Source of the DNA: Porphyridium purpureum
Lineage: Eukaryota
DNA length: 64,000 bases
Assembly (NCBI GenBank): GCA_008690995.1
Contig: VRMN01000006.1
Location: 558,001 to 622,000, forward strand
Direction of reading: 5' to 3'
In this document: positions 12,214 to 57,461 of the stretch, in pieces
Layout of the letters: every line of letters starts with the position of its first letter
How positions within the stretch are numbered: position 1 is the stretch's first letter
Translations under genes and position numbers: made by a program
The notes under the pieces: model-generated
Database searches by the model: none
Told to the model about the DNA's origin: nothing
The model's input: the letters and a program-made list of their open reading frames with translations, nothing else

Positions 12214-12366
12214 GATGGTGCGCGCGTGCTGCTCACATGCGCTCCGCAGTAGAGCAATTACGACCGCGATGGACAACACCCTTCTCTCTCATTCCTGACG
12301 TGGAGTGCCACCTTACACGTGGAAGTCATCTCTTGGGACGCCCGTACTGAAACACACCAGTTTTGT

Positions 12367-12374
12367 TATATAAA
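12367..12374 (+). promoter_or_regulatory. Putative TATA box (TATATAAA)
   Basis: About 120 nt upstream of the ATG at 12491 in otherwise GC-rich DNA. Confidence 0.5.
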
Positions 12375-12490
12375 TCCCGGCAGCTCGCGGAATATTTTCT
12401 GGCAACGACTGCGACTCGAGTGGGAGTAGCTGGGTTGGCGACTGCCACGGCTCTTCGACTACACGACGGTTCCCGGCAGGCATTCGCAGG

Positions 12491-38468: not shown

Positions 38469-41400
38469 ATGGACCTGGAAGAGTTTAAGAACGGCTCTGT
38501 GCTTAGATTGTTCATGCAAGATTTCTTGACGTTCAGTCGCGTGGAGTTTGAGCCGGGTCCGCGGCTGAACCTCGTGCTGGGGCCGAACGGAGCAGGCAAG
38601 TCCACGATTGTCAATGCACTGTGCATCGTGTTTGCAGGTAAGCTGGGCTTGCTGGCGCGCTCGCCAAAGCTCGCAGACTTTGTGAAGCACGGCGCGTCGA
38701 GGGCCGTGGTAGAGGCACACGTGCGTGATGAAAGCAAGCCCAAGGGTTACACAGTCGTACGTCGCGACTTTGATTCGAGCGGTGCGTCTGTTTGGTCACT
38801 GGACAAGAAAAGATGTACAGAGAACGATGTGAAGGCGTGGCGGCTGGGCCTGAACATCCAGATTGAAAACCTATGCCATTTCCAGCCTCAGGAGCGCGTG
38901 CAAGAGTTTTCGATGCTCGGCAAGAAGGAGCTGCTTAACTACACGCTGAGCGCCATCGTTGGCGACGATTTCCGCGACTCTCTCGATGCGCTGCGTGAGG
39001 AGTATCGGAACCTGAATGCTAGCGTGCGCGACGATGAAACAGACGCCAAAAAACTGGATGAGCTCAAGCAGAAAAATGCGCGCATCATGACGGACGTGCA
39101 GGCGTACAGGGAGCGGGAAAAGTATTTGGCGCAGGCGGAGAAGCTTAAACGCATGCGCCCGTGGATTTCGTCGGAGATTGAGCGCCGCAAGTGTGTCGAG
39201 CTCAAAAATAAGTTGGATCAGCTCAGGCGTGAGCTCAAGGTCGCCGAGGACGCCCTGACGGTTCGGCAAATGGAGTTTGACCCGCTTAAGAAGCACGTGG
39301 AAGAACATGAAAGAACTTTTGGGAAGCTGAAAGGTTTGTGCAAGAAGAGCGAGGCCAGAGTCAGTGAAGTACTGACAGACTCTGAAAAGGTTGAGCTCAG
39401 AATTGAGGAGAATAGGCGCGAGATTAGCGATGCGATACAACGTTCAGAGCGGCTGCAGCGAGACATATTGCACATTCAGCGCGAGTTGAATCAGCTGGAC
39501 GAAATGGTAGCATCGTCTGGCCCAGTGAGCATGCGAGAGATCGATGGCAAATTTGCAGAGCTGCGCTCATTGCGCGAAGGATACGAGACTGACTTTCAGC
39601 GCTTCAAGCGCCGCGATGGTGAACTGTGCAACCTGCTGCGTCGCAATGAGCGCGCGCTCCAGAATCTGGAACAGGAGATACGCAGGATGGACAATTTGCG
39701 CTTTCAGAAACTTCGGCAGCTAGCCAACGAGCTTCCGCATATCGAGGCTGTCGTTCAATGGATCGCGGAGAATCGCCATGCATTTCACGGCGAAGTTTTC
39801 GGTCCAGTGGCGCTGGAGCTCAAAGTGAGCGACGAGTTCCACGAGCGCGTGGTCGAGTCTGTGATTCCGCGCTGGATGCGGCTTGCCTTTGTGTGTCAGA
39901 GCCGCGAGGACCTGAGTATGCTCACGCGCGCCATGGATCAGCATCGCTGGTATGGAGTGAACGCCTTAAGTACGCCGTCAGATCCTCTGTTCAACATGCA
40001 AGGCCGGCACAATCTCGCCGACCTGGAGTCGATGGGACTCTACGCGTATGTCAAGGACATTTTTGACGCACCAGACGCCGTCAAGCGCGTGCTTGCCGCG
40101 CACTCGAACGTGCACGAAATTTTGGTGGGCAATGAAAACGCCACCCAGAACAAGGACAAGATCATCGAGTATGGCGTGCGCACATTTTTCACGCCTGTTG
40201 GCGTGTACGCAGTCAAAATGTCTCGTTACTCGTCGACGGCGTCGACGCGTATTGAGCCGTTGAAGCGATGCGACGGCGTTTTCCGAGGTGGCTCTCCAAA
40301 CCCAGAGGAGCTGGAAGCGCTCGAGGAGGAGAAACGCCGGATTATGCTCGCGCGAGACGAGTACGTGCTCGAAATGGAGCATGTACGCAACGCAACTCAA
40401 GAATGCGGCCAGAAAATTTCGGCTGCGAGCGTAGAGATTGAGAACCTTCGGCGCGAGAAAAAGCGACTACAGGACGTCGAGCGTACGCGCAGGCTCAAGC
40501 AAGACAGGCTCGACCAGCTGAAGCTCGAGATCGAGCGCATGGATGTGGGAAAGACGAAGGACGAGCTGGAACGGAGCATTGGGCATTGCAAAGCGCAACT
40601 AGCGGCACAGGTCCCCTTGCTCGTGGAGCGGCTACGTGAGAATGCTGCGAGCTTGCGCGCGTGCGACGAGGCACTGATTCTTGTAGCCGAGAGTCGGCTG
40701 CAGCTCAGTCGCAAGGAAGGAGAGAGCGAAGACCTACGCAGGACAGTTCGCACTAAAAAAGTTGTTTGCACTGATGTTGAGAAGCAGTACCATGAGATGA
40801 TGGGAAACTTCAAGAGGCTCAAGCGCCGCGCCGAGGAAACCTGTCCACTCGCCGAAAACCAGGATTTTCTCGCAGAGATGTTTCAGCAATTGTCACAAGA
40901 CAACCCGCTGGCCGTGTACGATGAGCTGATCCAGAAGGAGCTTTCACGGGCAAACACGTTTGGTGCCATGAATGGGCGCATCGTGGAGGAGTATGAGGCA
41001 CGAGAGACGGAAATTGCTAGGTTAGAGCGCAAGGTGGCCAAGCACCGAGAACGGCATGACTCTCAGCGCGCAACACTAGACCAGAAGAAGGCGGAGTTCC
41101 TCCTCAAACTCAACGATTGTATGACCAAGGTGAGCACAAACTTTTCTCGAGGCTTCCATGAGATTGGATGCAGCGGTGAGCTGGGGCTGCTGAATGCGGA
41201 AGAGACATCGAACCTCGACGATATTGAAATTGACATTCGTGTATCATATCGGCAGGGCTGTGCACTGGAGTCGTTGAATGGCATGACGCAGTCTGGTGGA
41301 GAGCGCATGGTGGCCACCATGATGTACTTGTTCAGTCTGGAAGGCCAGACTCGGGCGCCTTTCCGATGTGTTGACGAAATGAACCAAGGTATGGATGCTA

Positions 41401-41594
41401 GCAATGAGCGGCAGATCATGAACATGATGATTCGGCGCGGCGAAGAGAAGGACTATCCCCAGATGTTTCTGATCACGCCCAAGCTGCTTTCCAACCTTGA
41501 TTACCAGGACAGCACCGTGACACATGTAATTCTCAACGGTGACCTGAACGCTGCCGAGATTCTTGGCGCTACCAAGCGCTTGCGCTTGTCGTGA
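38469..41594 (+). CDS. SMC5: Structural maintenance of chromosomes protein 5
   Basis: PGPRLNLVLGPNGAGKST, NIQIENLCHF.PQERV.EF, long coiled coils with hinge, QSGGER.V.TMMYL, PFR.VDE.NQGMD..NER, FLITPKLL. Confidence 0.96.
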   Translation: MDLEEFKNGSVLRLFMQDFLTFSRVEFEPGPRLNLVLGPNGAGKSTIVNALCIVFAGKLGLLARSPKLADFVKHGASRAVVEAHVRDESKPKGYTVVRRDFDSSGASVWSLDKKRCTENDVKAWRLGLNIQIENLCHFQPQERVQEFSMLGKKELLNYTLSAIVGDDFRDSLDALREEYRNLNASVRDDETDAKKLDELKQKNARIMTDVQAYREREKYLAQAEKLKRMRPWISSEIERRKCVELKNKLDQLRRELKVAEDALTVRQMEFDPLKKHVEEHERTFGKLKGLCKKSEARVSEVLTDSEKVELRIEENRREISDAIQRSERLQRDILHIQRELNQLDEMVASSGPVSMREIDGKFAELRSLREGYETDFQRFKRRDGELCNLLRRNERALQNLEQEIRRMDNLRFQKLRQLANELPHIEAVVQWIAENRHAFHGEVFGPVALELKVSDEFHERVVESVIPRWMRLAFVCQSREDLSMLTRAMDQHRWYGVNALSTPSDPLFNMQGRHNLADLESMGLYAYVKDIFDAPDAVKRVLAAHSNVHEILVGNENATQNKDKIIEYGVRTFFTPVGVYAVKMSRYSSTASTRIEPLKRCDGVFRGGSPNPEELEALEEEKRRIMLARDEYVLEMEHVRNATQECGQKISAASVEIENLRREKKRLQDVERTRRLKQDRLDQLKLEIERMDVGKTKDELERSIGHCKAQLAAQVPLLVERLRENAASLRACDEALILVAESRLQLSRKEGESEDLRRTVRTKKVVCTDVEKQYHEMMGNFKRLKRRAEETCPLAENQDFLAEMFQQLSQDNPLAVYDELIQKELSRANTFGAMNGRIVEEYEARETEIARLERKVAKHRERHDSQRATLDQKKAEFLLKLNDCMTKVSTNFSRGFHEIGCSGELGLLNAEETSNLDDIEIDIRVSYRQGCALESLNGMTQSGGERMVATMMYLFSLEGQTRAPFRCVDEMNQGMDASNERQIMNMMIRRGEEKDYPQMFLITPKLLSNLDYQDSTVTHVILNGDLNAAEILGATKRLRLS

Positions 41595-42162
41595 AAATAG
41601 CAGCGCTTGGAATGGTGGGAACGGATGATTCGAACCCCAGAAAGTGCACGACCGGGAGTCAAGGTCCCCCATCTACCTTGCGGTCACCGGGTAGATCCTA
41701 ATGTGCCCGCCGTATGCATGCTTGAAGCGAAAATTTTGACTGCATTCCGAGGCGCCTGAAAGAGGGAGTGGCTCGCCTAGAATGGCAGCGTGCACGCATG
41801 CGTGCGTCAGTATGCCTAGCTTTCCATGTTCTCGGGGGAAATAGAATCGGGAAGTTGCTAAGTTTATGGCTAGAGATGCTTTGTGTGGTGATCGCTGGGA
41901 AACGGCCCTGTGCCTTTCTTCCTGCATAAGTCGCGAAGCGAGCGGATTTACAGACCTGCCGTGCGCTTGAACTGCGTCGCAATTGGAACGGAAGAGCTTT
42001 CTTTCAAACGATTTATCGACTTGGAAGCCGCGAAATGTTTCTAATTTTGCTTACCCGATTAAGCACAAAGTTGGTGCAACGCTGCTTTTAGCGCAAGGCG
42101 CAGCTTTCCACGCGTAGTGCATTATAAAAAAGGTATTATAATATCTTGGTCTATCGTCTTGT

Positions 42163-44580
42163 CTACGATCGCTTGCCAAACTTTTCCTTAAGCTTGGTGA
42201 GCAATCCGCGAGAATGCTTCTCCTCACGCGGCGATGTCCACTTCTCGGGCCCCTTCAAGGACGGGGCACGGCGACTTTTCACCGCCTGCGATAAAGCGGC
42301 GCGACGATCTTCGATGGCTCGCCCAATAGATTGGCGACGGCTTTGTACTGCTTGAGAAAAAGCAGCGCCACGGTCGCTGATAACTTTGCCTCCATCTTTC
42401 AGGGCATGTCCTAAACCGCCTAGCCGATTTTTAAGGTTTCGGCCAAGCTCTTCGCGACGCTCATTCGCCACGTGCTGCATGGTCGTCTTGCGACTCGTCT
42501 CTGTCGCCTCGCGCTTATCCGCCTCCCGAGGTAAAGATCCGCCCTTCTTAACAGCTTGAGTGATGGCGTCGCGGCGATCATTAAATGCCTTGCCGAGATC
42601 ACTGCGACGCTCGTTGAGTGCCTGCGAAAAGGCAGCGCCACGATCTTGCATCGACTGTCCCCTACCATTGAGAGGCTTCGTCGTCGAAGACGGGGAAGGC
42701 CTGCCACGATCTTTCACGGCCTCTCCAAGCGTCCTGCCACGATCCTGGACCGCATGCCAAAGCGACAAGGCCGCATTTCGCGAGGACGATGGCGATCCTG
42801 TCGATTCTGTCGACTCTTTCGCTGGTGGCGATCTCGCTGACGATGAGCTGCCGGCCAGGGAATCGAGATATGAGCCAGAGAAGGCTCCACCATAAGATGA
42901 CCGCGACCCACTCACAACATCCGAGCTTCTGCCGTTTCCGTTACCTATCGCTTTCGTGTCCAGCGTCTTTCGTCGTCCAGCCGCCTCTGGCGCTTTCTGA
43001 ACAGGAATCGGGGCCGTAGCTTTCAACTCATACCGAGGTGACGGGGTGTGGCTTGAAACCGGAGTCATGTCCAATGCCGCGCAGGTCCACAGAAACACAT
43101 CGACAGCGCTTGAACCTCCTTCGTGCATGAAGAAATACTCCTCTGGAGAGCATGCAGGTATCACGGCCGGGGATGACACGAAATCCTCGCGGGGCATGAC
43201 GTCCGCGGCCAGAAGAATCCCGGACGGCAAGGCAGCAGTGATCGGAAGTCCTTCGGCCAACATACTGGATGGAGAATGGCTCGGCTGCAACTCGGTGTAC
43301 AAACTCGAAAGCACAGGGATGGGCAGCAACTCGACTTGTGCGACTGCAGGCAGCTCAGTCTTTGCCTCAGATTTAAAAACCGGCGCGACCACGTCAGTGC
43401 TTGGACTTAGGTTGAAATCCCGCCCGCTGTTTCTGATCTCCTGCAAGTCGGCCGAGATGGTATCCGCAATGGTCTCCAATGGCAACGTGACGCAAGGCAC
43501 CTTTCTGTGCACCCAAAAGGGATCCTCAATCAGGTTTCCAATCTCCTCGATCGAAAATAGCGCGCCGGCCACAAAGGCCATGATGGGTACCACAAGGATA
43601 CCCGTGCTCTTGACGAGAATAACCGGCCACGTGAAACACCACAACGCAATAAAGCGACTGGTATGTTGGGCGTAGACTAACGGCACTGGAGTCTTGACAA
43701 TACGCTCGCACGCGCCCATAGCGTCAATCAAGTCCGCAATGCCGCGCTCCAACGTATCGCGCTCAGCCCATGTGTTGCCGCCGCGAAAGCCTCGCTTTTC
43801 ATACACTTCCGCGGTGTAGCGCGACACCAGCCGCATAATATACAGCGGACGATTACGCGCCTTCACGTAAAGGTCCCAGTCTTCCACAGGAAGTAATTCG
43901 CGAATGTCCGAGCTTGGTTCCTGCTGCCCGCGCAGATGGTTGGCCAGACTCTTTGAGAACGCAGCCAACAATCGAATGAGCTTCTGCGCCATCTTGGGGT
44001 TGGGAGCGTCCGAGTCGGGTCCAATCCAATTCATGATACCGGAGGCCATGCTCCTCGAGCGATTCACAATATAGTTCCACAGCTTGCGGCCCTCCCAAAA
44101 GCGGTCGTACGCCGAATTGGTCCTAAACACAAGCAGCAAGCCCATGACGGTACCCAACATACTGTAGGGAACGGGAGCAATCTGCCAGATATGCCAGTCT
44201 GGGTAGCGCTCGTACAGGTAAAGCACGAGCCCCGATACAGCCGTGTTTGCAACCAGGTGCGATCCGATACGGCCCAGGACGCGGGAGCTGGGCCAGGTCT
44301 GCAGGCTCTTGACCCAATCAGCGGACGTATACCTCTCTGGCCGCACGATGGCCATGTGCAGATGCGACGCTGCGCCGCAGGCTCTTGATCCTGACCTACT
44401 CTTCACCCAGACGCGCCTTGTGCCAAACTGTGCAGCGACCACGCGACCACTTTCAAGAACGCCTCTGCGTTCGTCTCTGCTTCGGCGTCTGCTGCTGCTT
44501 CCGCTCGCGCTTGCGCTCGACACTGCCGCGCAGCGCGGTACAGCGGCATGCACCGCCATAAAGGCCGCGCTAGGCGCCAT
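42163..44580 (-). CDS. Plastid bestrophin-like anion channel (UPF0187/VCCN/BST) with ~420-aa C-terminal extension
   Basis: Transit peptide; LLLVFRTNSAYDRFWEGRK.W, GACERIVKTPVP..Y..HTSRF, IEEIG..IEDPF; the frame continues with an S/P-rich then 11-mer-repeat tail. Confidence 0.92.
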   Translation of the reverse strand: MAPSAAFMAVHAAVPRCAAVSSASASGSSSRRRSRDERRGVLESGRVVAAQFGTRRVWVKSRSGSRACGAASHLHMAIVRPERYTSADWVKSLQTWPSSRVLGRIGSHLVANTAVSGLVLYLYERYPDWHIWQIAPVPYSMLGTVMGLLLVFRTNSAYDRFWEGRKLWNYIVNRSRSMASGIMNWIGPDSDAPNPKMAQKLIRLLAAFSKSLANHLRGQQEPSSDIRELLPVEDWDLYVKARNRPLYIMRLVSRYTAEVYEKRGFRGGNTWAERDTLERGIADLIDAMGACERIVKTPVPLVYAQHTSRFIALWCFTWPVILVKSTGILVVPIMAFVAGALFSIEEIGNLIEDPFWVHRKVPCVTLPLETIADTISADLQEIRNSGRDFNLSPSTDVVAPVFKSEAKTELPAVAQVELLPIPVLSSLYTELQPSHSPSSMLAEGLPITAALPSGILLAADVMPREDFVSSPAVIPACSPEEYFFMHEGGSSAVDVFLWTCAALDMTPVSSHTPSPRYELKATAPIPVQKAPEAAGRRKTLDTKAIGNGNGRSSDVVSGSRSSYGGAFSGSYLDSLAGSSSSARSPPAKESTESTGSPSSSRNAALSLWHAVQDRGRTLGEAVKDRGRPSPSSTTKPLNGRGQSMQDRGAAFSQALNERRSDLGKAFNDRRDAITQAVKKGGSLPREADKREATETSRKTTMQHVANERREELGRNLKNRLGGLGHALKDGGKVISDRGAAFSQAVQSRRQSIGRAIEDRRAALSQAVKSRRAPSLKGPEKWTSPREEKHSRGLLTKLKEKFGKRS

Positions 44581-44989
44581 CTCAACCTCCTCCCGCCTTC
44601 CGACTCAGCCCAGCGCGCCGGATCGTCGACGACTTGGTCTCCGTCTGCTTCTCCCACCTCGCACCAGATCACCGCACTTCTGGTTCAAGCGCGTCGAGAA
44701 AATCTCCATTTCATAGTAAAATGAGTCCGTTTTATGATTTTCTGGGATGCTGCTCGCTGCGTGCGTTCTGCGCACCGGGCAACACGCTCGTGCCGCAGCA
44801 GCTGACTCGCAGGGCTCACGCCTGGAATGTGCGCGACTCGGCTTGAATTGCGTGGAGATATCGGTTCCGCGCCGAGGAGCACGGCGCTCGCCTGATGTGG
44901 TGTGATGGAACACGTGGTGCCGCGCAAGCGCGAACCTTGAGACCCTCGGCTGATCGTGCGTTCCAACGCATGCGGCAGAGCCGTCCACA

Positions 44990-45140
44990 GCGATCGTTCC
45001 AGGTGGATGAGAAGCAGAGACCACTGGGACTCGATTCCGCAATTGATTAGGCTCTTTGCTTGCGCTCGGCCGAGTGTGTGCTTCAGGTGCTTGACCCACG
45101 CAGCGGACGTATGGTACCTGTCCGGCCGCAGAATTTCCAT
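44990..45140 (-). pseudogene. Decayed 5' fragment of a bestrophin-like paralogue
   Basis: 45091-45140 encodes MEILRPDRYHTSAAWVK versus MAIVRPERYTSADWVK in the neighbour, with clear nucleotide similarity to ~44309-44355; the downstream channel motifs are absent. Confidence 0.6.
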
Positions 45141-45456
45141 GCGAAGAGGCGAACCCACGGGCGCGCCCCACCATAGAACACAGCACTGATGCTGCTCACA
45201 CTGTACGTGTGGAGTCCGGCTCCTACGAGCTGCAGCTTTTTGTGAAATTCGGAAAGAATGAGGATTTAGTATCGTTAGCTGGTATTCTTCGAGACGTTCA
45301 TAATCAATAATGGTGTCAACAGTTAAGTGGCATATCTGCGTGCCACGCGAAAGAGGTGCTTGCATCCACCTGCAAGCTTCTATGCAAGCAAAGTGCTCTC
45401 GTTGCTTTTGTGCTCGCATTCGCAGTCACGTTTTCAGTGCAGTAAATGTCGCTCGT

Positions 45457-46755
45457 TCATGCCTGCACCGACCCATTGCTCGTGTCGGTGTCTCCACGTA
45501 TAATCCGAGTGTTGCCCGTCTCCCCAACCTCCACGACTGCTCCTTGCTCCTCGACAACATTCTCTCTGAGTCGAAGCAAGCTCTCTGGTCTCCAAAGCAA
45601 GATATGTTCGACCTCCGTCTGAAGAGCTCCGTCGTCTTTGGCGCCATCCGCGAGGCGCTTGGCGAAAAAGTCCTCACCAATCTGACTCCTGATGTCCTGC
45701 AAGTCGCCAAAGAGTTCGTTTGCAAAGTTTTCCAATTTCAGGGTGACGCAAGGCACGCTTGGATTCACCCAAAAGGGGTCCTCAATCAAGTTGCGAATGA
45801 CCTCGACCGAGAAAAGTCCTCCTGCAACAAACGCAGTGGTAGGCACGACAAAGACGCCCACGTGCCGAACCAGAATGACTGGCCAGATGAGGCACCACAA
45901 CGCAATGATGCGGCTTGTCCACTCACCGTAGACCAGTGGCACGGGCGTCTTGGCAATACGTTCGCACATACCCATGTCGTTCATCAAATCCGTAATGCCA
46001 CGCTCCAAAATCTCGCGCTCCGCGCTGGTATTGCCGGCGCGGACGCCACGATGCTTTGTATATACTTCCGCCACGTACCGTGAAAAGAGCCGCAGAATGA
46101 AGAGCGGGCGGTTGCGTGCTACTACGTATCGCTGCCAGTCCTCGGCAGGCACCAGCTCACAAATGACCGGGCTCGGCTCCTCGATTCCGCGCAAGTGCTT
46201 TGAGAGGCTCATGGGGAACGCAGCTAGCAGCTTAATGAGCTTATGTGCCATCTCTGGCTCAGCTGCGTCAGATTCTGGACCAAGCCAGCTGAAAACACCC
46301 ACCGCCAAGGTGCGCGTGCGATTCATCACCGAGCCCCACACGGTGCATCCTTCCCAAAAGCGCTCGTACGCAGAATTGGTTCTGAAGCCCAAGAGGTTGC
46401 CCATGAAGCCACTCATAATCATGAATGGCACCGGGTCGAGCTGCCAGAGCTCGCAGTCGGGAAAGCCCTCGTACAGGCCGAACACCAGCGCTGCAACGGC
46501 AGTGTTAGCGATCACATGTGAGCTAATGCAGCGCAGAATACGCGACTTGGGCAGCGTCACAAGCGCTTTGACCCAGTAGTTGGGAGAGTACCTTTCCTCG
46601 CGAACGAGGGCCATCCGTACATCGCTTGCCTGGCGCGTGGTCGTTCGCCTCTGCGAACATGCCGCACCAACTGTGCAACGGCTCTCTTTTTCGAGCGCGC
46701 GCACGTGACGGGTTCTGGGATGGACCTGCGTCACGGCACTCACAAAGGCGGTCAT
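45457..46755 (-). CDS. Plastid bestrophin-like protein, divergent paralogue
   Basis: MTAFV transit peptide; FRTNSAYERFWEG, CERIAKTPVP, IEDPF. Confidence 0.9.
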   Translation of the reverse strand: MTAFVSAVTQVHPRTRHVRALEKESRCTVGAACSQRRTTTRQASDVRMALVREERYSPNYWVKALVTLPKSRILRCISSHVIANTAVAALVFGLYEGFPDCELWQLDPVPFMIMSGFMGNLLGFRTNSAYERFWEGCTVWGSVMNRTRTLAVGVFSWLGPESDAAEPEMAHKLIKLLAAFPMSLSKHLRGIEEPSPVICELVPAEDWQRYVVARNRPLFILRLFSRYVAEVYTKHRGVRAGNTSAEREILERGITDLMNDMGMCERIAKTPVPLVYGEWTSRIIALWCLIWPVILVRHVGVFVVPTTAFVAGGLFSVEVIRNLIEDPFWVNPSVPCVTLKLENFANELFGDLQDIRSQIGEDFFAKRLADGAKDDGALQTEVEHILLWRPESLLRLRENVVEEQGAVVEVGETGNTRIIRGDTDTSNGSVQA

Positions 46756-48874
46756 CGTGTCTTTCGCTGCAGCGCGACTGCGCGCGTGAAACAAAGGCGA
46801 CCTTTCTCTTCCAGGCTTCTGCAACCACCTTCTTGAAGCAGAGGATGTCTGTCTGTGCCTGTGTCTGTGTGGCGTGTGCACCGCAGCGTCAACCACTCCG
46901 ACCCATCAGTGCGTGACACACTATACAACGAGAAGCAGAATCCAGCCCAATCCATCTGATCCCCGTGTCTGCACTGTCAACACCTTTGTATTTCTCCAGT
47001 CTGGCCGAGCCGTTCGTCATCAGCGCACGTGTCACACACTGCGTTCGCGTCACTTTTGTAAGGTGCCGCTTTGTCAACCACCCGCCAGCAAGAAAGCAAG
47101 CAAGCAAGCAAGCAAGCGAGCAAGCGGTAGAGTCTGTAAATCGGGACCGACTTTGCTTTGTGCAACGTTGCGCGTGACTACAAGGACGACGTCGTCATCG
47201 GTACAACATGCCAATGCGGCTCTCTTCCAGAACGAGTTTCAGCCAGCTCACACATCCAGCTGACGCAACTTTCCACCTAATCGGTTTCGGTTCAAAATCC
47301 AGACAAACCGGTTTGCAACCGAGCAAACTGTACCATTACAACATAGACCCATTTCATAGTATCATGCGGATTACTATTACAACACGTGTGTTTTAGTACA
47401 GATGGCATGGGTGTACAGTTGTGGGTGGCATGGCTATTCTTATCGGTTCACATGAGGCGCGAGTGAGAAACCGTTTCGCGAGCGTGCTCCGACGCTGTGG
47501 CATGGAAGGGAAAGATCCACGTCGCTTCGTGGTATCATCCGAGTGAAAGAGATGCACTGGTCATCCACATTGCGCCGTAGATAGTGCGCAAGGAAGCACG
47601 GACGACGATTGCTTTTCGCGCTAATTCAATGGCGAGTGCACCAGTGACCGTCGCGCAACATGGCAAAAGGCGAGCAGAGGCATCTTCGATGCACACGCAG
47701 CGCGTGTCGTAATTGTGGTAGACCCGTACCGTACAGATGTAAAGTTGAGAGATATGCGTCAGGCTGGATCACACGCAGAACTGACTCGGGGCGGAACAGG
47801 ACGCCACGATCTCAGGTCAGCCACACAGGCAGTCAGCCAGCCGCTGATTCTGGCACATGAGCGTGTGCTCTGAAGCGACTGGGTGCCAGCGCTCGCGGCG
47901 TGCCATCCTCATTCGATCATTCTCCCTTTGCTGTGTCAAACTCATGGTTGATTCTTAGTGCTGGCTACGCGACCGAGGCCATCAAGTCAATACGCGTCGC
48001 AGAACTTCGATACAGAACCCGGAGCAGTGAAGCACGCCTCGGGCTTTCTCTGTTAGTCATGCCGGCGTGAAGTTCCTCAAGTCAGCCCAAACTAGAACCA
48101 AGCTGTTAAACAGAGGAGATGTTTTCTGCGGGTTTCGGTGCAGGACGTCCGTCACATGGCAAAGATGCGGTCAAAGCTCTTGGCCTGTGGCCGACCACCG
48201 GAATGATGCCTTTTAACTTCCCGCATGGACTCGCATCGGGTGCTTGAAGCAACCTCAAAGCAGCGTAGACCAACACAAAGCTTGTCCTCAAGTTTTGTGA
48301 GTACATCAACAGTGCAGACAGTACGCGGCAGCTTGACAGTTTAAAAAACTTCATTACGCAAGACGTGACGCAATTTGCCACACGCTCTGCAGTTTCATCT
48401 TCCTGACACGGTTCCGATCGACCTCTTGGCTTATAGAACACCGCTTTTTGGTCTTTTGGCCCCGGCTCCACCTTTCGGGGCTCGCCACCGAAATGCAGGG
48501 ACTGACCGACCCGTCGCCACATGGTCCCGATCGAAGAAGTGCCACGGTGAAGGACGACATAGAGTGCAGGGTGACGCTGACCTCACTCTGACGATGGATG
48601 GACCCAGGTCGGCTTACGACCGGTTGTGGATCCAGCCGAGGTTCAGAAACGACGATGAATCCGACTTGCCCACTAGAGACTCACGCACAACGCCAATTCG
48701 ACACGTGGACCATCGCAAATGCCAAGGCGACGGCATGCCGTCACTTGGAGATGAAACACACCCGCCTGTTGAATTCCTCTGTTCACGCTCGCCCCACCTT
48801 CCAACATTCAATGTTCGATGCATGGCACGTTTTACATCAAGTGTCGCTGTTGACGACACAAGGAGAATCCGAGA

Positions 48875-50464
48875 ATGGTTTTCGCGGGCTTTGTGGAGGG
48901 ATTCTCTGATGGTTTGGCACGTTGTTGTCGGCACCAGCAGCAGCTACTCCCCGGGGCAGGACATGGGTGTCAAGATGTAAACACACTGCCACAGTTGTCG
49001 TTGCGGCGTCGGTCACGGTGTCGATCTCAGTCGAGGTTATGGATGGCATCTCCACACTCGGGTCTGAACTTGCCTCCCGGTGACAAGGGTCTTCCGCTGC
49101 TTGGCGATTTTCTGAGCTTTACAAGAGGCGGCGCCGCCGGCTTTGAGGGCAAGTTTGAAAAGTACAAGTCCGACGTAGTGACGTCGCGGATTCTCACCAT
49201 CGACACAGTGCTCGTGAAAGGGTTTGACCAGATTCGTCCGATTCTGGAGAGTCCCATGGAACCGGCATGGCCAGGCACAGTGGATGAACTCCTGAAAGGC
49301 AGCATGCCTACGATCAAGGGCGAGCCGCACAAGGCGCGCAGAGAAATCATTTCGCGCATTGCCTTCAGCCGCGAACGCCTGTTGAGCTATGCGCCATTTT
49401 TACAGGCAAACGTGCAGCAGCTGATTGCCAACATTGAGGCGCGCACGGCGTCCAGCGCTCAGACATATGCTCGTTTCAGGGACGAGATTGAGGTCATGGC
49501 GTTCAACGCGGCTGCAGTGCTGTTTCTGGGCGCGGAAGACGTCTACTGCGGGGCGGGTTCTGGACAAAAGGGGGACGGCTTAGACATCGACGAGCGTCTA
49601 GCACAATTTCAAAGATTCGAAGGCGGTCTGTTTACAATCCCGCTCAAGCTGCCGTTCCTGCAAACCCCATGGTCCGAGGCACTGGATGCCAAAGCAGCGT
49701 TGTTGGCGTTCACGCGCCGTGCGGTGGAGAAGCGTATCGAGGCGAAGCAGCAATCAGGCCCCCTGCCCACGATCACAATCATGGACCACCTGGTCGACAT
49801 GCACCTGGAAGGCGATGGCGTGCTCACCAAAGATATTGTCATATCGGAGCTTTTGACGCTGGTGTGGGCAGGCCATTCAACGATCCTTTCGTTCATGCAG
49901 AGCATGGTGTACGAACTCTTCATGGGCGGCACGCACGACGTTGTGCGCAGGATTCGAGCCTCGGCCGAGTACCGCGCGGCTTTGGAGAGCGATGAGGCAT
50001 GGTCTCACTACCTGAAATTGATCATCAAGCCGGACTTGGTAAATGATACCTTGCTCGAGATCGAGCGTCTGCGCCCTCCCGTCCAGAGCGTGTTTCGTAA
50101 GCCACCGCCGGGTGGGATGCAGGTCGGGGCTTACCACATCCCTGAGGGCTGGACCGTACTGCTTTCCATCTTCTCGACGCATCGCGACCCGGTGTATTTC
50201 CCGGAGCCACTCGCGTTCCGACCGGAGCGATTTGCCGAGTCGCCCGAGCTCCGTAAAATCCTGCTCGGATTTTCAGGCGGGGCCCGAGTGTGCATTGGAA
50301 AGTACTACGCGGAGCTGTTTTGTCGAATCTTTCTGCTCACATTCCTTCGGCATGGTGACGTTGTCATGGACCCGGCACAGTCGCGGGAATTTTCAGTGCT
50401 TCCTGGGTATTCGCCCAAGGATGGCGTTCTCGGCCGATTTCAAAAATTGGCTTTGAGCGAGTAG
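48875..50464 (+). CDS. Cytochrome P450, probably plastid-targeted (CYP120/clan 85-like)
   Basis: Transit-peptide-like N-terminus without a signal anchor; LPPG..GLPLLG, AGHST (I-helix), EIERL.PP (ExxR), FRPERF, FSGGARVCIG (heme Cys). Confidence 0.93.
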   Translation: MVFAGFVEGFSDGLARCCRHQQQLLPGAGHGCQDVNTLPQLSLRRRSRCRSQSRLWMASPHSGLNLPPGDKGLPLLGDFLSFTRGGAAGFEGKFEKYKSDVVTSRILTIDTVLVKGFDQIRPILESPMEPAWPGTVDELLKGSMPTIKGEPHKARREIISRIAFSRERLLSYAPFLQANVQQLIANIEARTASSAQTYARFRDEIEVMAFNAAAVLFLGAEDVYCGAGSGQKGDGLDIDERLAQFQRFEGGLFTIPLKLPFLQTPWSEALDAKAALLAFTRRAVEKRIEAKQQSGPLPTITIMDHLVDMHLEGDGVLTKDIVISELLTLVWAGHSTILSFMQSMVYELFMGGTHDVVRRIRASAEYRAALESDEAWSHYLKLIIKPDLVNDTLLEIERLRPPVQSVFRKPPPGGMQVGAYHIPEGWTVLLSIFSTHRDPVYFPEPLAFRPERFAESPELRKILLGFSGGARVCIGKYYAELFCRIFLLTFLRHGDVVMDPAQSREFSVLPGYSPKDGVLGRFQKLALSE

Positions 50465-50578
50465 CGTCCCACTTTTGTCCGGCGCACGTTGCTTTGTTCC
50501 CACAAGCACCTTAAGGTCGGCCCATGCATGAGCAATCCAGTTTATAAGCCTACATGAAGTCGATATTTGAAGGAAAAA

Positions 50579-51823
50579 TTAAATGTTCCTGTTCCATTCC
50601 CAGCCTGCCTTTTTCACATCGGCCGCCGGTGGCTCGGTCGCACCGTCTGGTGACTTGGCGCCGAACCTCATGGTGGGCACAGAAGGCTCCGCTGGTGCCG
50701 CAGGCGGCGGCAGAGCCGCAAGCGCCTCCAGCTGCTGGTCCACCGTGGTAATCATGTCCTGCAAGTCGCCGTTGATCGTCGTCGCCATCGCCTCCAACGG
50801 AAGGTCGATACCCGGCGCGGACGGGTGCTTGATGAACGGATCCTCGATCAAGTGCCCAATCTCCTCAATCGAAAACAGCGCAAACGAGACAAACGCCATG
50901 ATCGGCATCACCAGCCAGTCGTCCGCCTTGACAAAAATGAACGGCAGCGTCAGGCACCACAGCGACAGGAACCGGCTGGTGTGGCGCGAGTACGCCTCGG
51001 GCACGGGCGTCTTGACGATGCGCTCGCACATGCCCATGTAATCCACCAGGTCGTTGATACCGCGCTCCATGGTCTCGCGCTCGGCGTTGGTGTTTCCGTC
51101 GCGCTCCTCGCGGGCCGCGTACGCCTGCGCAATGTAGCGCGACTGGAGGCGGCACACCAGCAGCGGACGGTTGCGCGCCACAATGTACTCTTGCCAGTTT
51201 TGCTTTGGGATGAGCTTCTCCAGCGCCGCATTGGGCTCGAGCTCGCCACGCAAGTGGTTTGCCAGACTGATGGGGAACGCCTGGTCGAGTTTGATCAAGA
51301 TTTTGGAGACTTCTGGGTTTGGCGAGTCGTTGATGGGGCCGAGATAGTTCATGTAGTTGACGCCAAGCGAGCGCGTGCGGTTGACAATGCCTCCCCAGAT
51401 TTTTCGGCCCTCCCAGAATCGGTCGTACGCCGAGTTTGTCCTGAACACCAGCAGCAAGCCCATGACGGTACCCAGCACCGTGTGCGGGAGCGGGCTGATG
51501 CTCCAGATGTCAACCTTCGGGTACTGCTCATACAGAAAAAACACGAAGCCCGCGAAAATCACATTCGCGACAATGTGCGAGCGGATGCGACGCAGAATCG
51601 AGCTTTTCGGGATTGTTGTCAACGACTTGATCCAGTCCGTGCTCTTGTACCTCTCTGGGCGCGTGATAGCCATACTAAGCGCGCTCGGGCGCCTCACGCG
51701 TCGCGGCACCGCGAGTACCAGGCGGGCGCCATTCTTCAGCAACCCTGAGCTGCTGGACGTGAGATGAGCGCGCGGCCGCGCCGCAGCACCCGCGCTCCCG
51801 ACAAACGCCGCGTATCCCGCCAT
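50579..51823 (-). CDS. Plastid bestrophin-like anion channel, twin A
   Basis: MAGYAAFV transit peptide and all family motifs. Confidence 0.93.
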   Translation of the reverse strand: MAGYAAFVGSAGAAARPRAHLTSSSSGLLKNGARLVLAVPRRVRRPSALSMAITRPERYKSTDWIKSLTTIPKSSILRRIRSHIVANVIFAGFVFFLYEQYPKVDIWSISPLPHTVLGTVMGLLLVFRTNSAYDRFWEGRKIWGGIVNRTRSLGVNYMNYLGPINDSPNPEVSKILIKLDQAFPISLANHLRGELEPNAALEKLIPKQNWQEYIVARNRPLLVCRLQSRYIAQAYAAREERDGNTNAERETMERGINDLVDYMGMCERIVKTPVPEAYSRHTSRFLSLWCLTLPFIFVKADDWLVMPIMAFVSFALFSIEEIGHLIEDPFIKHPSAPGIDLPLEAMATTINGDLQDMITTVDQQLEALAALPPPAAPAEPSVPTMRFGAKSPDGATEPPAADVKKAGWEWNRNI

Positions 51824-52151
51824 CTGCGATGCTTCCTATTTCCGTGCGGCGTTTTCCCCCACCCACCCACACACAGAGAGACACCGTTGTCTCTACCACC
51901 TTTCTCGTTCTCTCTCTTTCTCTTCCTCTTTCTCTCTCTCTCACCAACGTGCTACTCGCGCAATCTCCGCAAAACGCTCGAAGATGTTTATATCAAAACA
52001 AACCCATTCTATTAGTAACTTGTCCGCGCGCGTCAGCAGGTGGTCATGGCATGTGCGGTGGATGGACAAGGTTGGTGTGGATGGGGGAAGGAGGTCTGAG
52101 TGTTTATACAGCAGAGAAGAAGGCATTCGCAGTGTCCACCATGCGCGGCAG

Positions 52152-53393
52152 TTAAATATTTCGGTTCGTGTTCCAGCCGGCCGACTTGACGCTGGCGATT
52201 GGCGGTGGCAGGGTCGCGTCGGCGGGCGACTTGGCGCCGAATTTCATGGTGGGCACAGAAGGCTCCGCCGGTGCCGCAGGCGGCGGCAGAGCCGCAAGCG
52301 CCTCCAGCTGCTGGTCCACCGTGGTAATCATGTCCTGCAAGTCGCCGTTGATCGTCGTCGCCATCGCCTCCAACGGAAGGTCGATGCCCGGCGCGTACGG
52401 GTGCTTGATGAACGGATCCTCAATCAAGTGCCCAATCTCCTCAATCGAAAACAGCGCAAACGAGACAAACGCCATGATCGGCATCACCAGCCAGTCGTCC
52501 GCCTTGACAAAGATGAAGGGCAGCGTCAGGCACCACAGCGACAGGAACCGGCTGGTGTGGCGCGAGTACGCCTCGGGCACGGGCGTCTTGACGATGCGCT
52601 CGCACATGCCCATATAGTCAATCAGGTCGTTGATACCGCGCTCCATAGTCTCGCGCTCGGCGTTGGTGTTTCCGTCGCGCTCCTCGCGGGTCGCGTACGC
52701 CTGCGCAATGTAGCGCGACTGGAGGCGGCACACCAGCAGCGGACGGTTGCGCGCCACAACGTACTCTTGCCAGTTTTGCTTTGGGATGAGCTTCTCCAGC
52801 GCCGCATTGGGCTCGAGCTCGCCACGCAAGTGATTTGCCAGACTGATGGGGAACGCCTGGTCGAGTTTGATCAAGATTTTGGAGACTTCTGGGTTTGGCG
52901 AGTCGTTGATGGGGCCGAGATAGTTCATGTAGTTGACGCCAAGCGAGCGCGTGCGGTTGACAATGCCTCCCCAGATTTTCCGGCCCTCCCAGAATCGGTC
53001 GTACGCCGAGTTTGTCCTGAACACGAGCAGCAAGCCCATGACGGTACCCAGCACCGTGTGCGGGAGCGGGCTGATACTCCAGATGTCAATGTTCGGGTAC
53101 ATCTCGTGCAACGCAAACACGATACCAGCAAACGCCACATTCGCCAGAATGTGTGACTGAATGCGGCGCAGGATCGAGCTCTTCGGGATCGTCGCGAGCG
53201 ACTTGATCCAGTCCGTGCTCTTGTACCTCTCTGGGCGCGTGATAGCCATACTAAGCGCGCTCTGGCGCCTCACGCGTCGCGGCGCCGCGACCACTGCGCC
53301 AGCCCCAATCACCAATGCCGAGCTCGTGGACGCCAGCTGCGCGCGCGCCGTTTGCGCGCGCAAGCCAGCTCCCGCACAACCTACAAAAGCCAT
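52152..53393 (-). CDS. Plastid bestrophin-like anion channel, twin B
   Basis: MAFV transit peptide; near-identical to 50579-51823 over the core. Confidence 0.93.
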   Translation of the reverse strand: MAFVGCAGAGLRAQTARAQLASTSSALVIGAGAVVAAPRRVRRQSALSMAITRPERYKSTDWIKSLATIPKSSILRRIQSHILANVAFAGIVFALHEMYPNIDIWSISPLPHTVLGTVMGLLLVFRTNSAYDRFWEGRKIWGGIVNRTRSLGVNYMNYLGPINDSPNPEVSKILIKLDQAFPISLANHLRGELEPNAALEKLIPKQNWQEYVVARNRPLLVCRLQSRYIAQAYATREERDGNTNAERETMERGINDLIDYMGMCERIVKTPVPEAYSRHTSRFLSLWCLTLPFIFVKADDWLVMPIMAFVSFALFSIEEIGHLIEDPFIKHPYAPGIDLPLEAMATTINGDLQDMITTVDQQLEALAALPPPAAPAEPSVPTMKFGAKSPADATLPPPIASVKSAGWNTNRNI

Positions 53394-53921
53394 TGCGTGC
53401 GTCTCCCGTTAAACAGCCTCTGTGTCCACCTCCGCCTGCTACACCTCTGTCGAGTGCCAGACCTCTACCGCCTGCATTCACTCGTCCTCTCTCTGTGTGT
53501 CTACCCGCTCATAAGTATCACCCCCTTCCCCACATCCGACCCAAGCAGGGTCCAATCCTCCCACACACATTCTACACCGCCAGTCTGTCGCACAAAGCTA
53601 CCCACACAGCGTACCACGCCGCTCCACAGCAGCACAGCGATCGAGATTACTCCATCCACACTCGCGCAGCCACGCAGCCACGCAATCCACGCCGCGCCCG
53701 AAAACGCACGCAGCACTCACTCACCTGCCACACAGCCTCCTCCAAATGCTCGCGCCATTCCATCCACCAGCGCACTAATTCACGCTCCACCAACACCCAC
53801 CCCAATGCAACCACCACCACCACCACCACCACCTCCCCCAATCTCCTCCACTTCCTCCTTCCCCCAATCTATACGCATTCCTTCCTGCATTCCTCTATTA
53901 AACCAGCCCTGTTTTACTATC

Positions 53922-54000
53922 AAAACCGTTTTTCGGCTCGTTCGGTTTTCCGGGTTTTCCGGGTTTTCCGCGTTTCCGGTTTCCGGTTTGTTGGTTGGTT
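53922..54000. repeat. Imperfect tandem (CGGGTTTTC / CGGTTTC) array in a divergent bestrophin promoter
   Basis: ttcggttttc cgggttttcc gggttttccg cgtttccggt ttccggtttg read directly. Confidence 0.75.
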
Positions 54001-54486
54001 TATTATTTTTTGAGGTGGTTTTGATATGAAACCGGTGCTGTAACACGCAGGCGATGATGGTTCGAGGGAGTTTGAGGGGTGAGAGAGCTTGCGACAAAGG
54101 CCTTTTGGGTTGTGGGTTGTGTGGATGGTTTGACTGTGGGGTGACGGGCAGTGTCTGGAAAGGGCGCTTGTTTCAGGCCACAAAAACCGCGCGGCTGTGC
54201 TTCTGCGTCGCTCGGCATTGGTCTGCTTGCCGCGCTCTGTCGCTCGGTCTGTGTCTTTGCGTCTCATGTGCACGGACGCACATCCACGCAGCGCGCGACA
54301 GTTTGAAGCGTCCGATTGGACCAACTTGCATTTGGTTATTTAAAGGTCGGGAGATTGAGTCATTTGAGAGAAAGCAGTGAGGTGGGTGGGGAGAGAGGGA
54401 GAGGGAGAGAGGAAGAGAGAGAGAAAGAGAGAGAGGTGAGTGAGTGGTTGGGAGGTGGAGAGGAGGGCTGCTTGGTGTGTGGAATC

Positions 54487-55659
54487 ATGTCGTGCGCAGC
54501 GTTTGTGGGAGCCGCGCTGCCTGTCAAGGGCAGCCACGGGTTTGCGGCGCAAGCCGGCACGCGAACGGACGCGCACAAGGTCGCCGTGGCCGCGCCGTTG
54601 GCGAGGCGCGTCCAGCGCGCGGCGGGCGCCGCGCACGCGCCGCTGCAGATGGCCATCACGCGGCCGGAGCGGTACTCGACCACAGACTGGATCAACTCGC
54701 TCGTCACCCTGCCAAAGTCGAGGATTCTCAGGCGCATCAGCTCGCACATCGTCGCCAACGTGGCCGTGTCCGGCCTCATTGTGGCGCTCTTCCAGCAGTA
54801 TCCAGACGCGCTGCTGTGGCGCGTCACGCCGCTGCCGCACACCGTGCTCGGTACCGTGATGGGTCTCATGCTCGTCTTCAGGACCAACTCGGCGTACGAC
54901 AGATTCTGGGAAGGCCGCAAGATCTGGGGTGGCATTGTCAACCGCACGCGCTCGCTCGCCGTCAACTTCCTCAACTTTGTGGGCCCCACCTCGGACGCCG
55001 CCGTCCCGGCCCTCTCGGCCAGGCTGATCAAGCTGGATCAGGCGTTCCCGCTGAGTCTCGCCGATCACCTGCGCGGCGAGCCGACACCGGCTGCGTCCAT
55101 CAAGGCGCTCATCCCTGAAGAGCACTGGGAGGAGTACCTGACTGCTCGAAACAGGCCTCTGCTGACGTGCAAGCTCATGTCGCGATATGTGGCGCAGGCC
55201 TACAGCATGCGCGACCTGCGCGACGGAAACACCAACGCCGAGCGTGAGACTATTGAGCGCGGTATCAACGACCTGATTGACTACATGGGCATGTGCGAGC
55301 GCATCGTCAAGACGCCCGTGCCGCTCAGCTACTCGCGCCACACCAGCCGATTCCTCTCGCTCTGGTGCCTGACCCTGCCGGTCATTTTCGTCAAGGCCGA
55401 CGACTGGCTGGTTCTGCCCATCATGTTCTTCGTGTCGTTCTCCCTGTTCTCGATCGAGGAAATCGGGCACCTGATTGAGGATCCGTTCATTAAGCACCCT
55501 GACGCGCCTGGCATTGACCTTCCGCTGGAGGCCATGGCCTCCACGATCAACGGTGACCTGCAAGATATGCTCGACAGCTTCCCGTCGTGGGCGAATGACC
55601 TGAAGCCCGAGGTCAGAGGCGCCATGGGTCGCCAGCTTGAGGCTGCGGGCAAGCAGTAA
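54487..55659 (+). CDS. Plastid bestrophin-like anion channel, inverted paralogue
   Basis: MSCAAFV transit peptide; FRTNSAYDRFWEGRK, CERIVKTPVP, IEEIGHLIEDPF. Confidence 0.93.
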   Translation: MSCAAFVGAALPVKGSHGFAAQAGTRTDAHKVAVAAPLARRVQRAAGAAHAPLQMAITRPERYSTTDWINSLVTLPKSRILRRISSHIVANVAVSGLIVALFQQYPDALLWRVTPLPHTVLGTVMGLMLVFRTNSAYDRFWEGRKIWGGIVNRTRSLAVNFLNFVGPTSDAAVPALSARLIKLDQAFPLSLADHLRGEPTPAASIKALIPEEHWEEYLTARNRPLLTCKLMSRYVAQAYSMRDLRDGNTNAERETIERGINDLIDYMGMCERIVKTPVPLSYSRHTSRFLSLWCLTLPVIFVKADDWLVLPIMFFVSFSLFSIEEIGHLIEDPFIKHPDAPGIDLPLEAMASTINGDLQDMLDSFPSWANDLKPEVRGAMGRQLEAAGKQ

Positions 55660-56183
55660 ATTCAGTATTAAGGTCCGAGCGAATTCTTTCAGCGAAAAGA
55701 ACGGTAAATGTGCATGATATCCAAGTTGACCTACGCTCTAGCCTTGAAGAGCCAAGATTTTTACTCTTGTGCACGAGGCATCTGTTGACACCGAAAAACG
55801 CAGAGCTCGGAATGGTTGAAAAGTGCGAATGCGAACAGCTTCTCTCGCATTTTGTCGCATCCCGCGGCTCGCTGCCGCCGTGGCCACTCCAAGTCAATTC
55901 ATACTTGCGTGTCAGAGCTGTCGCACGGCCGCTATCCAGTTGATGCATCCTGTACGCGCCAGCTCAATGCCTCAACCAGCAGCCTCGCCGCTGCTCTTCT
56001 CACCCGCACGCGCAACCTGCTCCGGAAAACATCCGAGGTACAGTTGGACGATATCACAAAACGCACCACATTTATTAGAGAGGGGACGCAAGTACAGTTG
56101 CTCGTGGCCTTCGGACTCGCGACGATGGCACGCAACCCGGACGTTGCCGAACGCGCCGCAAGGTTGGCGCACACCAACGGTTG

Positions 56184-57461
56184 ATGGCGCCGCCACCGCC
56201 GCGGCCGCGGCCGCCGTCGCGAGTGACACCGCGCCAAGCGCTACCAGGCATGCCCCGACAAACGATGGTATGGCCGGATGAACCGCAGCTACGGGCCTCG
56301 GCGCCGGCGGGCGCCCAGCCGGCTGGGGTGGCATTGGATGTGAATGCGCATTCTCACGCAAGAGAGTGGCATGCGCGCGGCGCGGGTGTTGTACAGCATC
56401 AGCAACAGCAGCAGCAAAATGTGCCGCTCGCGGTGGCATTGCAGGTGCCACCCTTTGCGTATCATCCGCGCGCGCACGTGATGATGCAGACGATGCCCAG
56501 CCGCGGAGACGCCGCTAGCGTCCAGCACATGTTGCAGGTGCAACAATTACAGGCACAGCAGCAGCTCTTGCTGGATCAAATACACGCGCTGCAGTGGCAG
56601 CAGCGGCAGCAGCAGCTGCAGCAGGGTCATCATCATGAAGTGGCCACGACCAACGCGCCTCCCGTTGGACCGGGCTCTCAGCAATCCGAATGCGGCGGCG
56701 CTCACGTGCACGCACGCGCACAACAGAACGAACGAAAAGATGTGCCAAGGAGTGCGTCCGTAACGCTGCATACAAGGCAGGCCAAAAATGGTGCTGCACA
56801 TCGAATCATTTCATCCAATTTGAAGCGGCGACACGTCGACGTGTCGACTGGGCGACATACGGCGAGCATACCAAGAAGGCGTCGTAACCAAAAGTACAAG
56901 GCAAAACTCAAGAATCGCGTGGCGCTTGGTCACAAAGGCTCGGCCGATAGGGAAACTCACTCCGAGGTCCCACCGGCATCCCGCACCAGCGGTGAGGAGG
57001 CCACGGTTCTTCAAACTCGAGAGGCTCGCGGGCTGGAAATGATGCAGTTTTTGGATGATGCAGAAAGAAAACAAGAAGAGCAGTCACGAGGTGCACGAAG
57101 CAGTTTGTCGCAGCCATTTGAACCACCTCGAGAAGATTCGGATGGCGCGCAAAGTAGCTGCTCACGTCTGGTTGAGTTGCCTGAAGAAGATGATGAGGGC
57201 ATTCAATCGGATGACATGAGCGGTCCTGTCGACCTCCGCGCAGGCGAGGCAGGCCTACGACTCTTGGTCGAAATGGCCTTCAACGATAAGCAGTCTTTAG
57301 ATCACCCTGCACCCAAGGCGTTCATCCCGCAGGTCGCAGACTCGGATGTAGAATCTGGGGAAATCCCTCTTTATACCAGCATTGGTTTTCATACGGTTGA
57401 CTTCAACTCGGACGCCGGCGCGCACAGCGAGTGCGGTAGCCAGCAGAGCGGGTACTTATAG
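56184..57461 (+). CDS. Hypothetical Q-rich low-complexity protein
   Basis: 425-aa ORF with poly-Q tracts and a basic PRRRRNQKYKAK cluster; no family recognised. Confidence 0.6.
   Translation: MAPPPPRPRPPSRVTPRQALPGMPRQTMVWPDEPQLRASAPAGAQPAGVALDVNAHSHAREWHARGAGVVQHQQQQQQNVPLAVALQVPPFAYHPRAHVMMQTMPSRGDAASVQHMLQVQQLQAQQQLLLDQIHALQWQQRQQQLQQGHHHEVATTNAPPVGPGSQQSECGGAHVHARAQQNERKDVPRSASVTLHTRQAKNGAAHRIISSNLKRRHVDVSTGRHTASIPRRRRNQKYKAKLKNRVALGHKGSADRETHSEVPPASRTSGEEATVLQTREARGLEMMQFLDDAERKQEEQSRGARSSLSQPFEPPREDSDGAQSSCSRLVELPEEDDEGIQSDDMSGPVDLRAGEAGLRLLVEMAFNDKQSLDHPAPKAFIPQVADSDVESGEIPLYTSIGFHTVDFNSDAGAHSECGSQQSGYL

Follow-up and report, generated by a model that had tools for sequence, protein, structure and literature searches.

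Local expansion of a poorly studied group of plastid bestrophins in Porphyridium purpureum, with two unusual paralogues

Bestrophins are pentamers with a central pore, and the plastid members have their termini on the stromal side. Among the described systems, the bestrophins of the Chlamydomonas CO2-concentrating mechanism are tandem or clustered (PMC6708349), and the neighboring gene numbers of the diatom bestrophins provide a further precedent for clustering. Pyrenoid targeting is directed by the tail of the protein in both PtBST3 (PMC11142338) and BST4 (PMC11638005). CrBST1-3 group with land plants and diatoms, while BST orthologues, among them BST1-3, the channels supplying the pyrenoids of green algae and diatoms, are reported lacking in red algae by a study whose supplement text includes Galdieria, not Porphyridium (PMC11142338). 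Molecular details of red-algal pyrenoids are sparse according to a 2026 review (PMC13655443), and the Porphyridium pyrenoid, through which runs a dense and strongly curved network of thylakoids (PMC13655443), is molecularly undescribed (PMC13655443, PMC10473226). Here, we analyzed five bestrophin genes, A to E, in a 64,000-nucleotide stretch of Porphyridium purpureum DNA (contig VRMN01000006.1, positions 558,001 to 622,000; hereafter the window, with positions counted from its first letter). They arose by expansion within one lineage, belong to a group of plastid bestrophins that has received little study, and include two unusual paralogues, A and B.

Compared with Chlamydomonas BST1-3 and the diatom proteins PtBST1-4 and TpBST1-2, A–E share the family, the fold, the clustering of paralogues, and tails that differ between copies (as in PtBST3), but fall outside the VCCN/BST clade to which those proteins belong. 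Plant VCCN1 (7EK1) resembles the window genes in fold (model of B), in the x-L-F neck of A, C, D, and E, and in a conserved tyrosine of transmembrane segment 3 (TM3), whereas the window genes have no HRS-type N-terminal extension and carry Asn in place of Glu195. AaPPAP30 of Amorphochlora amoebiformis, a plastid-targeted protein found with pyrenoids (PMC10927497), shares the RY..DW group and the domain PF25539 with A–E; unlike them, it is a secondary-plastid protein on a long branch, ~32% identical, with no resolved sister, and it lacks the 11-mer tail of A.

Family placement and integrity of the cluster

The window DNA is intron-poor, nuclear, and has a GC content of ~57%. Five uninterrupted single-exon open reading frames (ORFs) at 42163–55659 (13.5 kb), four on the minus and one on the plus strand, each match nearly the whole Pfam domain PF25539 (Bestrophin_2) at E values of 3.9e-55 to 5.6e-74, with scores of 188–250 bits against a curated cut-off of 27. 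A preliminary description of this locus, drawn from the sequence alone, had listed five intact genes over this span with one inverted, as we find here; its label “UPF0187” was not returned by our analysis, which gives Bestrophin_2. The block is, however, not contiguous. A cytochrome P450 gene together with ~2 kb free of long ORFs lies between B and C, splitting A–B from C–D–E, and the remnant of a sixth copy had been overlooked.

Plastid-type leaders, recognized by composition and an Ala-Phe start, are present in all five genes. They comprise 47–75 residues, are basic and acid-poor, open with the Ala-Phe motif, which occurs in 4 of 24 other window ORFs, and end at MA[IL]xR[PE]ERY. Import of A–E into the plastid is predicted, with a leader sequence that cannot separate envelope from thylakoid destination. 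Thus, the transit-peptide-like N-termini of the preliminary description are borne out, as are its four kinds of C-terminal tail (A; B; C/D; E). The motif it had singled out does end all five leaders, but R[YF]..[DE]W is found in 160 of the 212 proteins examined and is not special to this cluster. C and D are 90% identical, C/D and E 69–70%, A and the rest 58–61%, and B and the rest 50–61%; across the cores, the ratio of non-synonymous to synonymous rates (dN/dS) is ~0.14–0.24 for all ten gene pairs, and the cores are under purifying selection. The hydrophobic TM2 neck of three residues reads T-L-F in A, C, D, and E, as in other red algae.

A–E group together (100/99), with A+B (100/99) and E+(C+D) (99/96) as the two subclades, in a 45-row tree (LG+C20) hand-picked from ~300 fetched proteins after a 212-row FastTree; Chlorella and Micractinium proteins represent the VCCN/BST clade in this tree, from which CrBST1-4, the PtBSTs, and AtVCCN1 are absent. 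The clade lies inside a group of ten (96/93) that also contains both named Porphyridiales proteins and three further proteins. Timspurckia oligopyrenoides and Porphyridium aerugineum provide the closest named relatives; others come from Purpureofilum apyrenoidigerum, Rhodosorus, Pyropia, and Galdieria. Since A–E are nested among Porphyridiales proteins, the expansion is local and post-dates the split from the sampled relatives, in agreement with the independent expansion proposed before. Each named relative has one named cluster of this kind among the matches listed, a count in which the three further group proteins could be extra paralogues and from which transcriptomes may miss copies.

The phylogeny does not agree with the earlier designation “VCCN-type” or with a direct parallel to BST1-3. 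Proteins with a W..HRS motif (4 of 212; the motif was read from these four members) constitute their own clade (100/100) apart from A–E, and a union of the two is rejected by the approximately unbiased (AU) test (p = 0.0104; 22 rows, LG+G4). The N-terminal W..HRS extension is absent from all five window genes. For P0215, the Chlorella member of the W..HRS clade, the score is 209 bits with apple VCCN1 and 101 bits with KpBest; the corresponding values for C are 102 and 106. All five window genes contain FRTN, not the FRTE that holds Glu195 of VCCN1. As the Chlorella and Micractinium members of the clade also have FRTN, the FRTE glutamate marks plant VCCN1 only. Judged by these comparisons, A–E are not orthologues of VCCN1 or BST1-3.

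A–E fall within a wide assemblage of algal proteins that share an RY..DW start (31 rows, 98/95). The Amorphochlora protein P0114 matches PPAP30 as given in the supplementary data of PMC10927497 and branches in this group (98), which consequently has one member from a pyrenoid proteome. The fusion of PPAP30 to green fluorescent protein (GFP) surrounds the chlorophyll fluorescence at the surface of the plastid (PMC10927497). PPAP30 is the only functional hint found for the RY..DW group and indicates the plastid surface no less than thylakoids. A metagenome scan returned 80 loci (best identity 42%), none with two copies >1.2 kb apart and thus no evidence of synteny. No paper on Porphyridium bestrophins was found in open-access PubMed Central and bioRxiv, while subscription papers, supplements, or figure-only trees could hold one.

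Further arrangements were seen among the fetched relatives. P0221/P0313, P0222, P0233, and P0259 are single chains of five bestrophin domains (pseudo-pentamers), with Cymbomonas tetramitiformis and Agarophyton chilense among the named sources. Micractinium P0218 joins a BST-clade bestrophin to an LCIB-type carbonic anhydrase domain, which may be a fused gene model. Many dinoflagellate and haptophyte RY..DW members (several among P0145–P0191) contain EF-hand domains, suggesting calcium gating gained independently of animal bestrophins.

The copies are not an assembly artefact, as confirmed by C/D divergence with unrelated flanks (synonymous distance dS 0.14, dN 0.028), by contigs of independent runs over the unique 5′ ends of C and D, and by a one-piece contig of a strain with 12 differences, which spans 44600–47100 and includes the start of A, the remnant, and all of B. 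The stretch 42100–52000 is present in 19 of 24 listed runs, three of them recorded as RNA. Four runs were compared over 41000–57000. A, B, C, and E are covered by contigs without splice joint, A in all four runs, and the contigs end at roughly the same intergenic places. The unique 5′ end of C is covered in X2 and X4, that of D in X1 only; the missing coverage of D in X2 and X4 is no proof of anything. The five copies are probably transcribed, bearing in mind that only X2 among the four is recorded as RNA and that contigs give neither strand nor level. That C and D are alleles duplicated during assembly could be suspected from their 94–99% identity across the middle 800 nt, but their leaders, tails, and flanks differ and contigs from other runs reach across the unique 5′ end of each gene, which leaves this explanation with a negligible probability.

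The differences between C and D are unevenly distributed, with 31 of 48 over 1005 nt concentrated in the initial 160 nt. A stretch of 146 nt, the longest without a difference, exceeds random placement (p = 0.02). Together, this suggests gene conversion between the two genes. At 52747, contigs of two studies (X1, X13) that match D continue with sequence absent from the window.

The gate of B and the repeat tail of A

The divergence between paralogues goes beyond the sub-functionalization suggested by the preliminary description, most clearly in the gate of B and the 11-mer tail of A. B departs from its relatives at 14 of 49 columns that are conserved in at least 85% of 207 relatives; A departs at six, C and D at two, and E at three, while the median relative departs at two and none at 14 or more. 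The neck of VCCN1 consists of Pro184, Leu188, and Phe192 (PMC9076864), which align (7EK1) with Gly116, Asn120, and Phe124 in B, which thus departs from the hydrophobic three-residue pattern. The central residue is Leu in 205 of 207 relatives and Asn in B. Moreover, Glu278-Trp279 replace Arg-His after the TM3 tyrosine, and the EEIG motif has Arg321 in place of its Gly.

The evolutionary rate of B is roughly double that of A (41 versus 19 unique changes; Tajima p = 0.0045). Nevertheless, the gene is not decaying but under purifying selection, since seven of eight changed codons in the core are synonymous in the three runs whose sequence is not identical to the window (p = 2.6e-4, with non-synonymous sites making up 76%). 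Its reading frame is kept in all four runs compared, strain differences are 3.5-fold denser in its 3′ flank than in its coding region, and dN/dS between A and B amounts to 0.17 at dS 1.5. The model of B adopts the bestrophin fold with a predicted local distance difference test (pLDDT) value of 88, and VCCN1 and KpBest are the top Foldseek matches (E values 1e-12 to 1e-10). In animal bestrophins, removal of the neck hydrophobics leads to constitutive current, and changes at the first or middle position alter selectivity (PMC8496536). By analogy, the polar gate of B is probably leakier or differently selective. As a natural bestrophin with a polar central-gate residue under purifying selection, B is useful for questions of channel gating. 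Read-through of B into a downstream 244-codon ORF (44685–45419) was considered and dismissed, as this ORF is out of frame with B and has no Pfam match.

A carries 450 residues after the EDPF motif, compared to 30–75 in 12 other red-algal proteins. Residues 387–642 have pLDDT values <50 in the AlphaFold model, and the linker has no Pfam match. The nine 11-residue units further downstream, arranged in three runs, form long helices in the model. The full-length model of A, built from 5 sequences, is of low confidence, with a mean pLDDT of 49. The period of 11 residues is strong (z = 7.1 over 1000 shuffles; z = 5.7 for period 22) and the strongest among 47 tails of at least 100 residues in the fetched proteins, with the next reaching z = 4.9. 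On an 11/3 helix, all nine units place two adjacent hydrophobic positions between Arg-rich flanks and opposite Asp/Glu. With its narrow hydrophobic stripe, Arg flanks, and acidic/polar opposite face, A shows the layout of lipid-binding class A helices, which fits anionic membranes better than a coiled-coil core. Amphipathic 11-mer repeats are known in apolipoproteins, synucleins, perilipins, and group 3 late embryogenesis abundant (LEA) proteins, which the repeats of A resemble, as an analogy only, in their period and in the basic residues at the polar/non-polar edge.

Homology to these proteins is not supported, as the Pfam Apolipoprotein match has an E value of 0.087 and 13 bits at a cut-off of 90. 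Among 7992 candidates of 442–1409 residues, the tail retrieved itself alone, and an Atlas search gave no usable feature match and only generic long-helix matches with template modeling scores <0.5, neither of which proves absence; the repeat type was found on no other relative examined. In its long, partly disordered tail, A resembles the bestrophin BST4/RBMP1 of Chlamydomonas, but BST4 has two Rubisco-binding motifs where A has 11-mer amphipathic repeats, and the two tails are of independent origin. The previously drawn analogy is weakened further by the report that BST4 is not a tether and is dispensable for growth in air under continuous light (PMC11638005). As a channel joined to an 11-mer repeat tail, A is useful for questions of thylakoid shaping. 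The sequence KWTSPR near the end of A resembles the Rubisco sticker of PYCO1, KWSPRGGS (PMC10288592), but was discarded as evidence for Rubisco binding: it is a single copy with an extra residue, lacks GGS, and is near chance, the pattern KW.?SP also occurring in 6 other of 339 fetched proteins.

Function and alternative explanations

We tentatively favor, at a probability of about 0.45, that A–E are thylakoid anion channels serving pyrenoid CO2 supply as well as proton-motive-force balance; by analogy, a CO2-concentrating role is plausible. The proteins would be imported into the plastid, assemble as pentamers in thylakoid membranes, and pass Cl– and HCO3– into the lumen. C, D, and E would supply the ordinary channel at raised dosage, while A would be this channel anchored to a particular membrane site, probably the curved thylakoids that traverse the pyrenoid, through its long flexible linker and lipid-binding 11-mer helices. 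B could act by itself as a leak subunit or modify mixed pentamers as one of their subunits. Specialization by location for A and by gating for B is the best reading of the two unusual members. If the cluster serves the pyrenoid, it would represent a further independent bestrophin recruitment, from a different branch of the family, and the compact block offers named candidates for red-algal pyrenoid channels. A more far-reaching version is rather improbable: here, the cluster would be the membrane half of the red-algal pyrenoid, built from an independent bestrophin lineage, with A anchored by apolipoprotein-like helices and possibly bending or stitching thylakoids, and B as an open-gated subunit that keeps mixed pentamers bicarbonate-conducting.

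Several observations speak against a pyrenoid function. Galdieria and Purpureofilum apyrenoidigerum carry the ancestral gene, although neither is known to have a pyrenoid, as the species name of the latter also indicates. Pyrenoid-bearing Timspurckia, P. aerugineum, Rhodosorus, and Pyropia each have one such cluster among the matches listed, so that a red-algal pyrenoid does not require five copies. No carbonic anhydrase was detected among the 38 other or overlapping window ORFs scanned. In one other strain, five of seven changed codons in the tail of A are non-synonymous, giving no sign of constraint, with the two changed codons in the repeat region conservative, the frame kept, and the differences of the middle contig possibly listed incompletely. 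KpBest is equally close by score, yet is a Na+ channel (PMC8496536), so that anion selectivity is only inferred. PPAP30-GFP was seen at the plastid surface, not in thylakoids (PMC10927497), and BST4 is reported not to be a tether (PMC11638005).

The presence of the orthologue in pyrenoid-less red algae would suit thylakoid channels for Cl– or another ion that tune the proton-motive-force split and photoprotection when light or salt changes, and that contribute nothing substantial to CO2 supply. VCCN1 has this job in plants (PMC4890181), and long-tailed BST4 acts on lumen pH in fluctuating light (PMC11638005). However, A–E possess neither the HRS-type extension nor the FRTE glutamate tied to VCCN1 gating, and the tail of A and the gate of B are explained no better. 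Both roles can coexist, and an exclusive function of this kind appears somewhat unlikely. The surface location of PPAP30, the group's one localized member (PMC10927497), would instead place A–E in the plastid envelope, where they could pass HCO3– or Cl– between cytosol and stroma and the helices of A could tie envelope to thylakoids. The plastid of the PPAP30 alga, however, is bounded by four membranes, and the periplastidal compartment extends into its pyrenoid. In primary plastids and in diatoms, those bestrophins that have been localized reside in thylakoids (PMC13655443). An envelope site is improbable for A–E.

Finally, the cluster might reflect birth-and-death duplication with one or two working copies, in which the tail of A is a by-product of read-through or captured low-complexity sequence and B decays slowly. 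The decayed sixth copy, a second tandem pair in the window (10984–13711), the fast rate of B, and the tail of A, without a homologue found and apparently unconstrained in one strain, are in line with such a process. It is difficult to reconcile with the intact frame and largely synonymous changes of B, with the low dN/dS between A and B, and with a tail of A that has the strongest 11-residue period and keeps its frame, and we regard it as very unlikely.

Features of the locus and its surroundings

The sixth-copy remnant consists of 72 nt at 45081–45152 that are 76% identical to the start of the mature coding region of A (blastn E 1e-6), with a weak protein match extending to 44994 (tblastn E 0.01). 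It is contained in contigs that carry gene B and is probably located in the 3′ untranslated region of B. An extension beyond the first 70–150 nt was rejected: a lenient alignment scored 148, barely above the shuffle maximum of 140, and only a short remnant is therefore claimed.

Table 1. Positions of the bestrophin genes, their parts, and associated features in the window.
Feature	Position	Strand	Description
Gene A, bestrophin	42163..44580	-	805 aa; plastid-type leader, canonical T-L-F neck, 420-residue C-terminal tail
A repeats, residues 613–771, nine 11-residue units	42268..42744	-	predicted amphipathic helices
A linker, residues 386–610, predicted disordered	42751..43425	-	first half acidic/hydrophobic, second half Ser/Gly-rich
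Remnant of sixth, A-like copy, start of mature protein only	44994..45152	-	blastn, tblastn
Gene B, divergent bestrophin	45457..46755	-	432 aa; changes at near-invariant sites
B codon 120 (Asn), central neck position	46396..46398	-	aligned to MdVCCN1 Leu188 / KpBest Ile66
Cytochrome P450 gene inside cluster	48875..50464	+	PF00067, E 6.7e-34
Gene C, conventional bestrophin	50579..51823	-	414 aa; short Pro/Ala-rich tail
Gene D, conventional bestrophin, youngest duplicate of C	52152..53393	-	413 aa
Gene E, conventional bestrophin, shortest tail	54487..55659	+	390 aa

The P450 gene has a plastid-type Ala/Gly-Phe start and lies tail to tail with C, with no apparent connection to the channels. A LrgA/LrgB-domain gene at 31473–33053 (minus strand), presumably a PLGG1-like plastid glycolate/glycerate transporter by family, is located 9 kb from the cluster, which is probably coincidence. 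The tandem pair at 10984–13711 (plus strand) encodes diacylglycerol-kinase/YegS-like proteins and is 69% identical in DNA.

D and E are divergently oriented around a 1.1-kb intergenic region, in which an imperfect 24-nt inverted repeat flanks an AAACC/GGTTT-rich spacer (53904–54040). AAACCG words resembling this spacer are also found upstream of B, near 47280–47320. The segment 47200–48850 is without a long ORF and is covered by contigs in several runs.

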